Positions 33,015 to 38,660 of a stretch of 64,000 nucleotides of DNA are shown here, in pieces. The stretch is from an uncultured Clostridia bacterium. GTDB taxonomy: Bacteria > Bacillota > Clostridia > TANB77 > CAG-508. Positions within the stretch are counted from its first letter, which is position 1; each line of letters starts with the position of its first letter. Under the pieces are notes generated by a model. That model did not search any database. It was not told the DNA's origin and worked only from the letters and a program-made list of their open reading frames with translations. The position numbers and the translations under genes were made by a program. The stretch spans positions 2,935 to 66,934 of the forward strand of contig CAKOTK010000008.1 of NCBI GenBank assembly GCA_934120135.1, in the 5' to 3' direction.

Positions 33015-33374
33015 TTAGCTGTTATTATTATTGTTGTTATTGTTATTGTTGTTATTTCCAGAAGAACCTCCTGATGAAGATGATGAAGTTGGCTCATAGT
33101 GTGGCACTATTGTAATACTCTTTTTATCAATACTTATACCATCAAATGAATTATCTTTTGGAATTACAGTTAATGTTTTTATAACTTTCCCTGCGTCATT
33201 AACAAATGACAATATACTTCGACTGGCTACAATTGAATTTTTATCTGATTCTCCTAAAAACTCATATATCTCATTAAATACATTTTCTGTTATATTAGAA
33301 TAATAATTTGCAATAGTATAGCATTTTTTTAATCTTACAGCTTCGTTATATGTCTTTGGTTTTATATCTATCAT
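33015..33374 (-). CDS. Hypothetical 119-aa protein ending in a Ser/Gly-rich segment plus (Asn)12-Ser; translationally coupled to the radical SAM gene
   Basis: The start overlaps the rSAM gene stop by 4 nt (33371-33374). C-terminus ...HYEPTSSSSSGGSSGNNNNNNNNNNNNS is encoded by (AAT/AAC)12 at 33021-33056. No Cys residues apart from one. Confidence 0.6.
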   Translation of the reverse strand: MIDIKPKTYNEAVRLKKCYTIANYYSNITENVFNEIYEFLGESDKNSIVASRSILSFVNDAGKVIKTLTVIPKDNSFDGISIDKKSITIVPHYEPTSSSSSGGSSGNNNNNNNNNNNNS

Positions 33375-35137
33375 TTTAAGTCCCCCTTACAATCAATATA
33401 GAATAATTCTATATTTTGAAATGGTAAATTTATTGCTTGTATATGATAATAAGCATTATTTTTATGTTTAATATAATGATAATCTCTTAATTCTGTTGTA
33501 GTAAAAAACAAGTTGTTTGGTCTCTCGGTAGATAAGTTTTTATAATATATACTCAATATTGGTGTTATATCTGCACAATAGTAACCATCTTTATCTGATT
33601 TTCCTTTTTTTATTGTATTTGTAAATATTTGATGTGTCATAATATGTTCTTGTTTTATTCTCTGCTCATCTCCATATTGTAACATATCTCCTGTTAATAA
33701 CATCATATATAGGGAATTGCTTGCAGGGTAATCACAATCTTCTAAAACTCCATGTTTTATATATAATTTTATCCTACTTTCATCTGTTATGTAGATAATA
33801 TCTCTTTTATTTTTTATTATTTGCGACTCTAGCTTATATTCTATATCATCAACTTTTAATATAAACATATCAGTACTGTATAGCTTTTGTAACTTTTTAT
33901 CAGCTGAGATAATTGATGTTAGGCTAGGTATGTCTTGATGTATAATTTTTGTCTCTTTCGGATAATATTCACTTGCAATATTTGGATGCATTTTGTTCAA
34001 ATATACATAAGTAGACTCCTCATTGTTTTCATCTTTTGGATATAGCTCTTGATTATTTATATATATTTGTTGTTGTAATTTACAGGTATATGATTTATTG
34101 CTATTGTATTTGTTTTTCACAAAGGGACATCCTGTTTTGCATAAATATAAGTATTGGCATTCTGCACATTCTTTATTAAAACCTACTTTATTATGAACTT
34201 CAAATATTTTTCGTTTTGCATTTTCTAAAATGTTTTCAACATTGTCTTTATAAATATTTCCATAATAAAATTCATTATTTTTTTGTCCTCTTACACAAGA
34301 ATAAATGTCTCCGTTTCTTTCTAGTAAGAAAAATTTTTCTCCACAATTATCACAATTTGTACAATATTCTGGTCCAAACTCAGCAAACCACTTATGCTTT
34401 ACTCCATAGTCGAGCGAAGTTCCTATAAACTCCTTGTTCATTCTTTTATAAAATTCTACTTGTTCTTCTTCGCTCATTGCGTGCATTATACTATGTTCTT
34501 TATCATCCACAAATCCAATCATAAAATTAAAATCATTCATATCTAAACAAGTATTTTTTTCTAGATATTTAATATCTTCAATTATTTCATCTATTTTATT
34601 AGAATGTTCTTTAAATATAGTGGCAGAAACCTTTTTATTATTAGGTATCTCCTCTAGCAATTTAATATTACTTAGTATTTTGTTTAATGTCTTTTGATTT
34701 CCCTTTGTCACTCTATATTCTTCATGTAGTGAAAATGGTAAATCAAGTGAACCACTTATTGAAACATTAAATTCTTTTATTGTATCAATATGTTTTTCTA
34801 AGTTAAATAAATTTGTTTTTATATGAGGATTACCTAATTTGAAACCATTATTAGTAATTAGTTCTTTATTGTCTCTGTAATAATTTGATATATATTTTAT
34901 AATATTTCTAAAGTCTTGCTTATCAAGGGTAGTTACTTCTCCTCCATGTAAAGATATGTTAAAAGGAATAACATTAGCATTCTTAAATTTCTTTACTGCA
35001 TAATCTAAAGTTTTTAAATATGCGTCATCTTGTTCTAAGTCAACAGTATTTTCCTTTAGGTAACAGTATTTACATTTCATATTGCAATTCATTGTAGGCA
35101 CATATAGTAGGTGAATAAATCTTAATTCATTGTCCAT
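33371..35137 (-). CDS. Radical SAM / SPASM-domain enzyme (anSME/peptide-maturase-like) with an unusual roughly 230-aa C-terminal extension
   Basis: 588 aa; CxxxCxxC motif near the N-terminus (CNMKCKYCY); SPASM/twitch Cys clusters (CTNCDNCG...SC and CAECQYLYLCKTGCPF) around residues 260-340; the C-terminal third shows no recognisable motifs. Confidence 0.85.
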   Translation of the reverse strand: MDNELRFIHLLYVPTMNCNMKCKYCYLKENTVDLEQDDAYLKTLDYAVKKFKNANVIPFNISLHGGEVTTLDKQDFRNIIKYISNYYRDNKELITNNGFKLGNPHIKTNLFNLEKHIDTIKEFNVSISGSLDLPFSLHEEYRVTKGNQKTLNKILSNIKLLEEIPNNKKVSATIFKEHSNKIDEIIEDIKYLEKNTCLDMNDFNFMIGFVDDKEHSIMHAMSEEEQVEFYKRMNKEFIGTSLDYGVKHKWFAEFGPEYCTNCDNCGEKFFLLERNGDIYSCVRGQKNNEFYYGNIYKDNVENILENAKRKIFEVHNKVGFNKECAECQYLYLCKTGCPFVKNKYNSNKSYTCKLQQQIYINNQELYPKDENNEESTYVYLNKMHPNIASEYYPKETKIIHQDIPSLTSIISADKKLQKLYSTDMFILKVDDIEYKLESQIIKNKRDIIYITDESRIKLYIKHGVLEDCDYPASNSLYMMLLTGDMLQYGDEQRIKQEHIMTHQIFTNTIKKGKSDKDGYYCADITPILSIYYKNLSTERPNNLFFTTTELRDYHYIKHKNNAYYHIQAINLPFQNIELFYIDCKGDLK

Positions 35138-36467
35138 AAGTTTCTCCTCTTAAGTATTGTATTGATGTTGGACTTCCTTTAAACGCTCTTTCATTTATCA
35201 CAGCATTTTTTGGAACCTTTATTGATTTTAGAGAATAGCATTGTCTGAATGCAGAACTTCCTATCTCAACAACAGTAGTTGGAACTGATACATAGCTTAG
35301 CTTTCTGCATCCATGAAATGCATGTCCACCTATTCTAGTAACTCCTTCTGGTATTATAATTGATGAAAGCTCAATACAATTCTCAAATGTATTACCTCTT
35401 ATTTCCTTTATTTTAGATGGTAATATAACATTATCTAATCTTGAATCTCCACTAAAACATTCACCATGAATAGAAATAATATTGTCATGCAAATTTATTC
35501 TTTTTAGTGAAGTACAATATTTAAAAGTCTCGCCATTTAGTTCTATCACTTTACTAGGTATTGTTATTTCTGTTAATGATTTACAATTATAGAAAGCTCC
35601 GGCTCCCAAGTATTCTAAACTTTCTGGTAATTCAACTCCGTTTAATTTTTCAGCATTTTTAAAAGCTGATGCCCTTATATTAATTATTCCATTTGGTAAA
35701 AAAACACTTCGTAAATTTGTACAATTTTCAAAGGCACTTGCTCTTATTTCTGTAACTTTTGGTGGAATGTTTATGCGTTCTAAATTTTCGCATCCATAAA
35801 ATGCTTTAGATTTTATACTTTCTAGATTTTTTGGTAATATTACTCTTTTAATATTTGTATTTTCAAAAGCTCCAATTCCTATTGCAATTACATTTTTTCC
35901 ATTATGAGTATCTGGAACTACAATACTTTCAATGTTATTTTTAAAATCTCTTGTATACTTAATTACTGCATATCCATCACCATACTTAAAGTATAATAAC
36001 TTTGGACTAGAGAATATCAATATTGGGATAATTATTGTAATAATTGCTGTTAATCCTGTTCTCAAATAAAGTGGAAATGCTATTTGTTTTTTATTATTTT
36101 TTACTTCTGTTACTATTTTGGTAATATCTTCGTTTGGCAGTTTCTTTGCTTTTTTGTAAATAACATTAACAATATTAAATTGTCTTGTTACTATAAAGTA
36201 TATTAATATTGTGATTCCTTCACAAATTATACACGTTTTAAATTCAACATTAAAAATATACATCAATGTATAAACAGCTGTTAATATTCCCCATATCAAG
36301 ACTGTTATATTTATCTTTTTGTTCAATTCTGGTGTTGTTAAACTCTGAATTTTTTCTCCTTGATTTTCAATCTCTTCTCTTATTAGATTTTTTATTATAT
36401 TTTTTTCATTTTTCAAATACTTAGAATCAACTGTAACAATTGGACTCTCATCATTTACTTTTTTCAT
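35127..36467 (-). CDS. Membrane-anchored BspA-type leucine-rich-repeat protein
   Basis: 446 aa; three N-terminal TM segments; then at least 8 repeats of the BspA-LRR pattern (IPxxVxxIxxxAFxxCxxLxxIxLP, e.g. RINIPPKVTEIRASAFENCTNLRSVFLP). The stop overlaps the rSAM start by 11 nt. Confidence 0.8.
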   Translation of the reverse strand: MKKVNDESPIVTVDSKYLKNEKNIIKNLIREEIENQGEKIQSLTTPELNKKINITVLIWGILTAVYTLMYIFNVEFKTCIICEGITILIYFIVTRQFNIVNVIYKKAKKLPNEDITKIVTEVKNNKKQIAFPLYLRTGLTAIITIIIPILIFSSPKLLYFKYGDGYAVIKYTRDFKNNIESIVVPDTHNGKNVIAIGIGAFENTNIKRVILPKNLESIKSKAFYGCENLERINIPPKVTEIRASAFENCTNLRSVFLPNGIINIRASAFKNAEKLNGVELPESLEYLGAGAFYNCKSLTEITIPSKVIELNGETFKYCTSLKRINLHDNIISIHGECFSGDSRLDNVILPSKIKEIRGNTFENCIELSSIIIPEGVTRIGGHAFHGCRKLSYVSVPTTVVEIGSSAFRQCYSLKSIKVPKNAVINERAFKGSPTSIQYLRGETYGQ

Positions 36468-38100: not shown

Positions 38101-38102
38101 AA

Positions 38103-38660
38103 CTATAAACTCACCTTAACATTATTTCTTTCTTCTATATTTGCTTCAAACATATTAGCTTGTTCAAATTTAAATATTGTAGCAATTATATTACTTGGGA
38201 ACATTTGAATTTTGTTATTTAAATTTCTAACTGTTCCATTGTAATACTTTCTACTATTTGCTATTTCGTCCTCAATTTTGGTTAGTTCAGCACTTAAGTT
38301 TAAAAAGTTTTCACTCGCTTTTAGTTCAGGATAGTTTTCTGCCACAGCCATCACTTTGCTTATTCCTTCTGTTAATTGTTCATTAATATTTATTTTCTTA
38401 TTTGTTAACATTTCATCATAATTACCTGTTCGTAAAGCCGTTATTTGGGTAAAAGTATCCTCTTCATGTTTTGCATATTGTTTTACTACTTCAACTAAGT
38501 TTGGTACTAAATCCCATCTTTTCTTTAAGTATACATCCATAGTTGAAAAAGCTTCTTTTACATCATTTCTTGCATTAATCAATTTGTTATATTGTACTAT
38601 TACATATATTGCTAGTACTGCAATTATCGCTATAAGAATATATAACCACATAAAAAACAT
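38103..38660 (-). CDS. lemA: LemA-family membrane protein
   Basis: 185 aa; N-terminal TM plus a conserved LemA core (QYNKLINARNDVKEAFSTMDVYLKKRWDLVPNLVE...ENYPELKASENF...ELTKIEDEIANSRKYYN). Confidence 0.9.
   Translation of the reverse strand: MFFMWLYILIAIIAVLAIYVIVQYNKLINARNDVKEAFSTMDVYLKKRWDLVPNLVEVVKQYAKHEEDTFTQITALRTGNYDEMLTNKKININEQLTEGISKVMAVAENYPELKASENFLNLSAELTKIEDEIANSRKYYNGTVRNLNNKIQMFPSNIIATIFKFEQANMFEANIEERNNVKVSL

Follow-up and report, generated by a model that had tools for sequence, protein, structure and literature searches.

The subject of this work is a cluster of five minus-strand genes at positions 33015-38660 of a 64,000-nucleotide stretch of DNA (hereafter, the window; G+C content ~29%) from an uncultured Clostridia bacterium. 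Within this cluster, a gene encoding a radical S-adenosyl methionine (SAM)/SPASM enzyme of 588 amino acids (aa) is coupled to a gene encoding a small, 119-aa protein that ends in a run of asparagine (Asn) residues, and the analysis concentrates on this pair. The open reading frame (ORF) list of the window contained all five ORFs at the coordinates, and with the close packing, that had been reported in the initial annotation. The following features were distinguished.

38103-38660 (-), LemA-family single-pass membrane protein, 185 aa (PF04011, 175 bits, 1e-51); a clade-specific accessory and the usual partner of DUF2207
36496-38100 (-), DUF2207 membrane protein, 534 aa (PF09972 and PF20990); a clade-specific accessory of the module
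35127-36467 (-), polytopic membrane protein with a BspA-type leucine-rich repeat (LRR) domain, LRR_5, 446 aa; in gut Bacilli, usually the partner encoded upstream of the enzyme
33371-35137 (-), radical SAM/SPASM enzyme, whole gene, 588 aa
34073-35137 (-), radical SAM core and SPASM domain, enzyme residues 1-355 (PF04055, TIGR04085, invariant cysteines in the alignment)
33374-34072 (-), family-specific C-terminal domain, enzyme residues 356-588; predicted β-sandwich with helical inserts, proposed as a substrate-docking domain
33015-33374 (-), small, Asn-tailed partner protein, whole gene, 119 aa
33090-33374 (-), folded N-domain of the partner protein, residues 1-95; two helices and five strands, no signal peptide
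33018-33089 (-), disordered C-terminal tail of the partner protein, composed of the Ser/Gly linker TSSSSSGGSSG, 12 Asn residues (33021-33056) and a final Ser; proposed recognition element and modification site

From LemA onwards, the junctions are a 2-nt gap (LemA/DUF2207), a 28-nt gap (DUF2207/LRR), an 11-nt overlap (LRR/enzyme) and a 4-nt ATGA overlap (enzyme/small protein), and a strong ribosome-binding site (Shine-Dalgarno sequence AAGGGGGA) lies 6 nt upstream of the ATG of the small protein. The domain assignments made previously (LemA, DUF2207, BspA-type LRR, radical SAM and SPASM) were borne out by the Pfam and NCBIfam scores. Apart from the values listed above and those given below for the enzyme, both parts of the DUF2207 protein scored above the Pfam gathering score (N-terminal, 76.8 bits, 3e-21; C-terminal, 120.1 bits, 2e-34), and LRR_5 (PF13306) matched the LRR protein in two stretches (220.7 bits, E = 5e-66).

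Conservation of the enzyme-partner pair in gut Bacilli

With one genome scanned per species, relatives were detected in 222 genomes, of which the best 80 (61-83% identity) were examined for gene neighbourhood. All of these 80 are metagenome-assembled genomes of uncultured gut "Bacilli/Clostridia/Tenericutes" from human, rabbit and deer, and the relatives include Mycoplasma sp. CAG:877, Clostridium sp. CAG:524 and CAG:417, and Ca. Coprovivens. The first three neighbourhoods (75-81% identity) comprised LRR, enzyme and small-protein genes; DUF2207 in addition to these three; and all five genes, respectively, with unrelated flanks in each case. Profile searches of ORFs placed the small-protein gene immediately after the enzyme gene in 88 out of 88 loci, including all 80 species loci, and among further metagenome loci the Asn-tailed small protein followed the enzyme in 77 of 80, the other three being contig ends. 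The LRR gene was found directly upstream of the enzyme gene in 76 of the 80 species loci, and the LRR protein was absent from loci L028, L084, L089 and L091. The LemA/DUF2207 set was much more restricted: DUF2207 was present in 20 of the 80 loci, all within the subclade nearest to the window, and even there both genes were absent from L001-3 and L012, while LemA was found in ~17 loci and was absent from L006-8 despite the presence of DUF2207. In the DUF2207-containing blocks, the flanking gene differed in every species (13/13 upstream and 17/17 downstream).

These counts, together with the variability of the flanks, indicate that what is conserved in gut Bacilli is the unit of LRR, enzyme and small-protein genes. 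LemA/DUF2207, although it moves together with this unit, is a clade-specific accessory, whereas the radical SAM enzyme and the Asn-tailed protein are a near-universal pair and constitute the smaller invariant core of the locus. The proposal that all five genes make up one module was therefore retained in part, i.e., for the near-universal pair and for the LRR gene within gut Bacilli, but not for LemA and DUF2207, given their presence in only a quarter of the loci. Likewise, conserved synteny in related genomes, on which that proposal depended, was found for the three genes and only partly for the remaining two.

Alignment of the small proteins showed a conserved N-terminal part (KPxTYxE...RxKxC...IYxFL...D...PHY), a Ser/Gly stretch ending in GGSS, the Asn run and, usually, one final residue. 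Among 74 complete small proteins, 72 carry 9-20 Asn residues (mode 12-15), and the last residue of the tail is R in 45, S in 14 and N in 8. Outside the tail, identity drops to ~35%; within gut Bacilli, G103-S104-S105 of the linker is at least 90% conserved. A profile of the N-domain, run against 5.8 billion proteins, recovered 156 relatives, all of ~110-125 aa, unnamed, and nearly all with the tail. No NHLP, Nif11 or PqqD signal was detected in the 119-aa protein with Pfam and NCBIfam, and its 95-aa domain is predicted to be confidently folded.

The Asn run of the window is encoded by mixed AAT and AAC codons, and AAC accounts for 38% of Asn codons inside the runs versus 16% elsewhere in the enzyme genes. 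Such mixed, AAC-enriched coding indicates that simple slippage does not account for the run and that it is maintained at the protein level. A run of six or more Asn residues was found in none of 1028 other genes of the related loci, and in the window it occurs in one frame, that of the small protein, among 224 long frames. An origin of the run as an artefact of AT bias was considered and rejected, as the run persists at 57-64% G+C and its codons are mixed.

In the more distant subclade (L037-L088), a gene encoding a membrane protein of ~338 aa with zinc ribbons starts ~10 nt after the small-protein gene in 43 of the 80 loci. This protein (e.g., L080:10121-11137) contains a CPNCG...CPYC ribbon ahead of two transmembrane (TM) helices and a second ribbon at its C-terminal end, and no homolog of its gene was found in the window. 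Since it never occurs in the same locus as LemA/DUF2207, it may be their functional analogue. No protease or ABC/MFS exporter is conserved beside the pair in the related loci.

The LRR protein of the window has three to four hydrophobic segments ahead of the LRR domain, in line with the multiple TM segments ascribed to it in the initial annotation, and its orthologs always have at least three at this position. The LRR domain would face outward, judging by the positive-inside rule and a K-rich loop that separates the second core helix from the third. At 446 aa, the protein of the window lacks ~95 N-terminal residues, comprising two TM segments, of its 68%-identical orthologs (536-541 aa; L009:6362-7987), and the spacer between the DUF2207 and LRR genes is 28 nt in the window versus ~145 nt in L009. 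The shorter form may reflect an N-terminal deletion or a different start codon.

Several further genes were observed near the module in single lineages. One species has an additional, divergent LemA-DUF2207 pair, encoded on the opposite strand immediately downstream of the module (L015:7633-10074, minus strand). In the lineage with LRR, enzyme and small-protein genes only, Bro-N, RusA and Fic genes are located upstream (L001:1276-2571, 5528-6208), a hint of a prophage remnant or mobile element. In a species lacking the LRR gene, the genes after the pair encode a seven-TM protein and another radical SAM protein, shorter at 346 aa (L084:10010-11878).

The radical SAM/SPASM enzyme and its C-terminal domain

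Membership of the enzyme in the radical SAM superfamily (PF04055, 39.2 bits versus a cut-off of 29.5) and the presence of a SPASM domain (TIGR04085, 45.6 bits versus 27) were both supported, and the Pfam SPASM model PF13186 scored slightly under its cut-off (19.3 versus 21.5 bits). The CxxxCxxC cluster motif corresponds to C18-x3-C22-x2-C25. The SPASM pattern with two auxiliary clusters, defined as CX9-15GX4C...CX2CX5CX3C...C, is represented by its full set of seven cysteines (C265...G276-x4-C281, C324-x2-C327-x5-C333-x3-C337, and C352), and both motifs are invariant among the aligned homologs. From these cysteine patterns, three [4Fe-4S] sites are predicted for the enzyme, which would be cytoplasmic. 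The N-terminal, PqqD-like recognition element (RRE) that serves maturases of peptides made by the ribosome and then modified post-translationally (RiPPs), such as PqqE and AlbA, was found neither fused to the enzyme nor alongside it; as the cluster motif begins at residue 18, there is no room for an N-terminal RRE.

In agreement with the initial annotation, which knew of no described system with this gene combination, all named NCBIfam equivalogs scored far under their cut-offs. The best of them was anSME (TIGR03942; 97.3 bits versus 349.45, residues 15-362), and DynA, DarE, PapB, HxsB, GrrM, XyeB-type and other models gave 21-88 bits versus cut-offs of 265-650. The closest named relatives by sequence, i.e., anSME, DynA, DarE, and PapB, are all protein or peptide maturases. 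The window enzyme shares with them the CxxxCxxC core, the seven-Cys SPASM domain with two auxiliary clusters and a predicted abstraction of hydrogen from a substrate residue, be it in a protein or in a peptide, and with anSME also the lack of an N-terminal RRE. It differs in that its scores of 65-97 bits, versus cut-offs of 340-650, assign it to none of these four families, in its extra 230-aa C-terminal β-sandwich domain and in its presumed substrate, a poly-Asn tail instead of a CxPxR motif or an aromatic/Cys core. The (C/S)xPxR sulfatase motif does not occur in the tail of the partner, and no sulfatase-family match was obtained among the five proteins, the rest of the genome not having been searched. 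Neither the enzyme nor its profile matched any PDB sequence, even at E ≤ 1.

The C-terminal domain, to which no function had been assigned, also proved to be distinctive. Residues 356-588 matched no Pfam or NCBIfam model; their conservation equals that of the catalytic core, with YGDExRxKQEH and TTxxLRDYHYxKxxxNAFYHIQAINLPF as invariant motifs. Searched alone, the domain recovered 98 proteins among 1.84 billion representatives, and all the full-length ones (~590-616 aa) carry it at the C-terminal end and share the architecture of the enzyme, which indicates that the domain is exclusive to this enzyme family. The close homologs of the enzyme number more than 2000, all of 585-590 aa, and over 500 family members were matched in metagenome data. 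A public metagenome contig (L114) is 100% identical to the window in the enzyme C-terminal domain, the only part compared.

Curated libraries name neither this domain nor the small protein: Pfam gave only a sub-threshold match to MCP1_SIFV, and NCBIfam none. No model for the enzyme family, its C-terminal domain or the partner protein was found in NCBIfam (June 2026), Pfam or PADLOC; among PHROGs, the enzyme matched only phrog_1802, which is unannotated, and the small protein gave a weak match. It should be stressed that phrog_1802 matches residues 13-574, including the C-terminal domain (E = 6e-34), and so shares the whole architecture; however, this "radical SAM domain-containing protein" is an automatic cluster for which no function, substrate or partner has been described. 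PADLOC did not match any defence system in the locus, the only signal being a weak generic radical SAM match of the enzyme to pVip (28.9 bits), and the partner proteins gave none.

Distant relatives, phages and the surroundings of the locus

Asn-ended neighbours were also found in more distant cellular relatives. In L089 (64% G+C), the enzyme gene is preceded by a gene for a 168-aa two-TM protein and followed by one, overlapping the enzyme stop codon, for a 160-aa protein ending in ...KPGQS-N18-G. In L091 (57% G+C), where there is no LRR gene, the enzyme is accompanied by a 120-aa protein ending in ...TWT-N10-G. The order is different in L092/93, with a protein ending in ...N14-G, a 76-aa ORF and then the enzyme, and in L095, with a collagen-like protein ending in YNNNNNGNNH, a 142-aa ORF and then the enzyme. 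The residue preceding the Asn run in distant members is S, T, Y, P, G or C. The pair of L089 is followed by genes for two PIN-domain toxins and for a PhdYeFM antitoxin (L089:3969-5408), so its setting is rich in toxin-antitoxin genes and possibly mobile.

Homologs of the enzyme were additionally identified in phages, an aspect not foreseen in the initial annotation. Within a Mu-like phage (L090), a 173-aa protein ending in GGGGGGSGPNNNF and a phrog_10241 protein precede the enzyme. The genome of Campylobacter phage CAM-P21 (L096, MW462221.2) contains, at positions 7235-11122, genes for a tail fibre, a 211-aa Tfa-like chaperone, the enzyme and a DUF1353 protein. The annotated tail fibre has a PF12571 N-domain and a C-terminus reading ...APSGSTNNNNY, and the enzyme, annotated as hypothetical only, shows 36% identity over 97% of its length. 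The same order of fibre, chaperone, radical SAM and DUF1353 genes recurs in CJIE1-like prophages among the IMG/VR loci. An Asn-ended protein is encoded near the enzyme gene in 15 of the 17 IMG/VR loci, and in 14 of these 15 cases it is a fibre or fibre-like protein with 2-7 Asn residues (NNNNY, GNNF, GNNS, CNNNNN, N7LAGNV). In L097, it is a small protein of the cellular type ending in N14R, and in L111 the Asn-ended neighbour is ambiguous. A homolog of the small protein was not seen near the enzyme gene in the phage loci, as judged from gene maps and not from a profile test. The element common to the loci across phyla and phages is the C-terminal Asn run on a neighbouring protein, and not the LRR protein or the N-domain of the small protein.

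The position of the phage enzyme gene after fibre and chaperone genes is that of a fibre-assembly accessory, as in the Mu/P2-like fibre and Tfa modules (CJIE1 H-fibre, PMC7882524), while the locus of the window contains no fibre, chaperone or other phage gene. In the literature, we found no description of a radical SAM enzyme acting with poly-Asn, nor of a radical SAM gene beside the CJIE1/Campylobacter fibre. Moreover, to our knowledge, the described fibre-assembly systems include no radical SAM enzyme.

Within the window itself, a downstream gene for a 91-aa TM protein (32632-32907) was considered as a further member of the module and rejected, having no counterpart in any related locus. The sole terminator-like site was found after this gene, and the promoter and terminator scan of the AT-rich window was otherwise uninformative (59 sites versus 51 expected). 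Rfam gave no match at positions 32000-39500, and a 20-aa ORF scan revealed neither a conserved nor a Cys-rich mini-ORF precursor, consistent with the earlier remark that no Cys-rich leader peptide was visible. Directly upstream of LemA, a 2701-aa protein is encoded on the minus strand (38739-46844), with GH94 supersandwich and catalytic domains, a glucoamylase-like domain and internal TM segments. This domain architecture is presumably that of a cyclic β-1,2-glucan synthase, which is unusual for a small, low-G+C genome of a gut Firmicute. Downstream of the module, also on the minus strand, are genes for an OmpR-type response regulator (31645-32442), a HAMP-PAS histidine kinase (30185-31633) and a signal-peptidase-like protein (29513-30166). 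Their arrangement (29513-32442) resembles WalRK and is not kept beside the module in relatives.

Poly-Asn tails as candidate targets of protein maturation

The pairing of this enzyme with a protein ending in an Asn run points to an undescribed modification of poly-Asn tails. Judging from the sequence comparisons, we find it rather probable that the pair is a two-gene enzyme-substrate core, in which the enzyme would be a protein maturase and the poly-Asn tail the recognition element and probably also the modified site. The coupled 119-aa protein, one of several possible substrates listed in the initial annotation, has thereby gained strong comparative support. In the proposed mechanism, the C-terminal domain would dock the partner, via its tail or its folded domain, and in this respect replace the RRE used by RiPP maturases. 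The flexible Asn tail would thread into the active site, where a 5'-deoxyadenosyl radical would abstract hydrogen from Asn residues (Cβ or Cα), and a repeated modification, e.g., a cross-link, epimerisation or oxidation, would be installed. In gut Bacilli, the pair would act with the surface-exposed membrane LRR protein and, in the subclade of the window, also with DUF2207/LemA. Radical chemistry on Asn is plausible by analogy, because the SPASM maturases DynA and NxxcB attack Asn Cβ and some SPASM enzymes epimerise. The substrate role of the partner tail, its recognition by the C-terminal domain and a role in the envelope are what we infer from this conservation. As the Asn run of phages terminates a tail fibre, the most likely product is a protein in its matured form and not a peptide that is cleaved off and exported. 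This matured protein probably has an envelope or adhesion function, since the pair is accompanied by a surface LRR protein and DUF2207/LemA.

Other explanations were weighed against this one. The 119-aa protein could be a long-leader precursor of the proteusin/NHLP type, whose Asn core is modified, cleaved and exported, with the membrane proteins serving as exporter or immunity factors, and its layout, with a conserved N-terminal part followed by a C-terminal core of hypervariable length, does resemble a precursor. It is comparable to PoyA, acted upon by the radical SAM epimerase PoyD, in having an N-terminal part of ~90-100 residues and a short C-terminal segment for radical SAM modification (polytheonamide is Asn-rich); the closest named enzymes are RiPP maturases, and membrane proteins are co-encoded. 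Nevertheless, such a classic RiPP seems unlikely, as the supposed leader is a domain predicted to be confidently folded, with a fold different from that of proteusins and no NHLP, Nif11 or PqqD signal, the enzyme is of the SPASM type, unlike PoyD, and has no RRE ahead of its early cluster motif, and neither a protease nor an exporter is kept beside the pair, whose flanks differ from species to species. In phages, the Asn run terminates a structural tail-fibre protein, and this location of the enzyme gene favours protein maturation over an exported peptide.

Still less likely, in our view, is that the small protein acts as an accessory subunit or chaperone with a disordered, low-complexity Asn appendage, the true substrate being the LRR protein or a protein encoded elsewhere. 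The 11-nt overlap of the LRR and enzyme genes, their association in 76 of 80 gut Bacilli loci and the modification of separately encoded proteins by anSME, the best curated match, would fit such a role. However, the members from phages, L089 and L091 have kept an Asn-ended neighbour without an LRR protein, the phage gene maps show this neighbour without a homolog of the small protein (so that the run and not the N-domain is shared), the run persists at 64% G+C, beyond AT-driven low complexity, and its background frequency is zero (0/1028 genes with six or more Asn). The anSME match (97 bits over residues 15-362) and the near-invariant GGSS linker would also accommodate an anSME-like oxidation of a linker Ser to formylglycine, for which the Asn run would be a spacer or tag, but we regard this as very improbable, because the score is far under the 349-bit family cut-off, the tail has no (C/S)xPxR motif, and the variable residue before the run in distant members leaves no universal Ser.

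The interpretation of the Asn tail as the target of maturation also has to accommodate several observations that weigh against it. One of the 17 IMG/VR loci (L109) has no Asn-ended neighbour, and the GNNF tails of phages contain as few as two Asn residues, which weakens the definition of "poly-Asn". The residues flanking the run are not conserved family-wide and provide no precise target motif. Modification could also take place at some other residue, the tail serving for docking alone. An extracellular position is predicted for the LRR domain, whereas the enzyme and the small protein carry no export signals. Finally, a CJIE1-like H-fibre placed in a Pseudomonas aeruginosa pyocin chimera with the chaperone only, i.e., without the radical SAM enzyme, bound and killed Campylobacter (PMC7882524), which means that any modification is not essential for receptor binding there.

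What is new about this radical SAM/SPASM maturase is its extra domain, the class of its presumed substrate and its partners. We propose more tentatively, and with somewhat more doubt than belief, that this widespread family recognises C-terminal poly-Asn tails by means of its β-sandwich domain and installs a new radical modification of Asn (e.g., serial cross-links or epimerisation), its targets being the receptor-binding tail fibres of Campylobacter-type prophages and the LRR-partnered small proteins of more than 200 uncultured species of gut Bacilli.

Radical SAM/SPASM maturases are a main source of new peptide and protein chemistry and, as far as we know, all those characterised target Cys, aromatic, Ser/Thr or similar motifs, while the comparison made here points to a homopolymeric Asn tail as what the partners all have in common. 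The family is abundant in Bacilli of the human, rabbit and ruminant gut, which have no cultured representatives, and it offers a first functional handle on the polytopic BspA-type LRR protein and, more weakly, on the LemA/DUF2207 pair. In CJIE1-like Campylobacter prophages, its genes also adjoin that of a receptor-binding fibre validated by experiment; the tip of a phage fibre may therefore carry a radical modification, of which we know no reported case. If the proposed reading is true, the family would bring a new substrate class, and possibly a new chemistry, to the maturation of proteins at host- or phage-surface interfaces.

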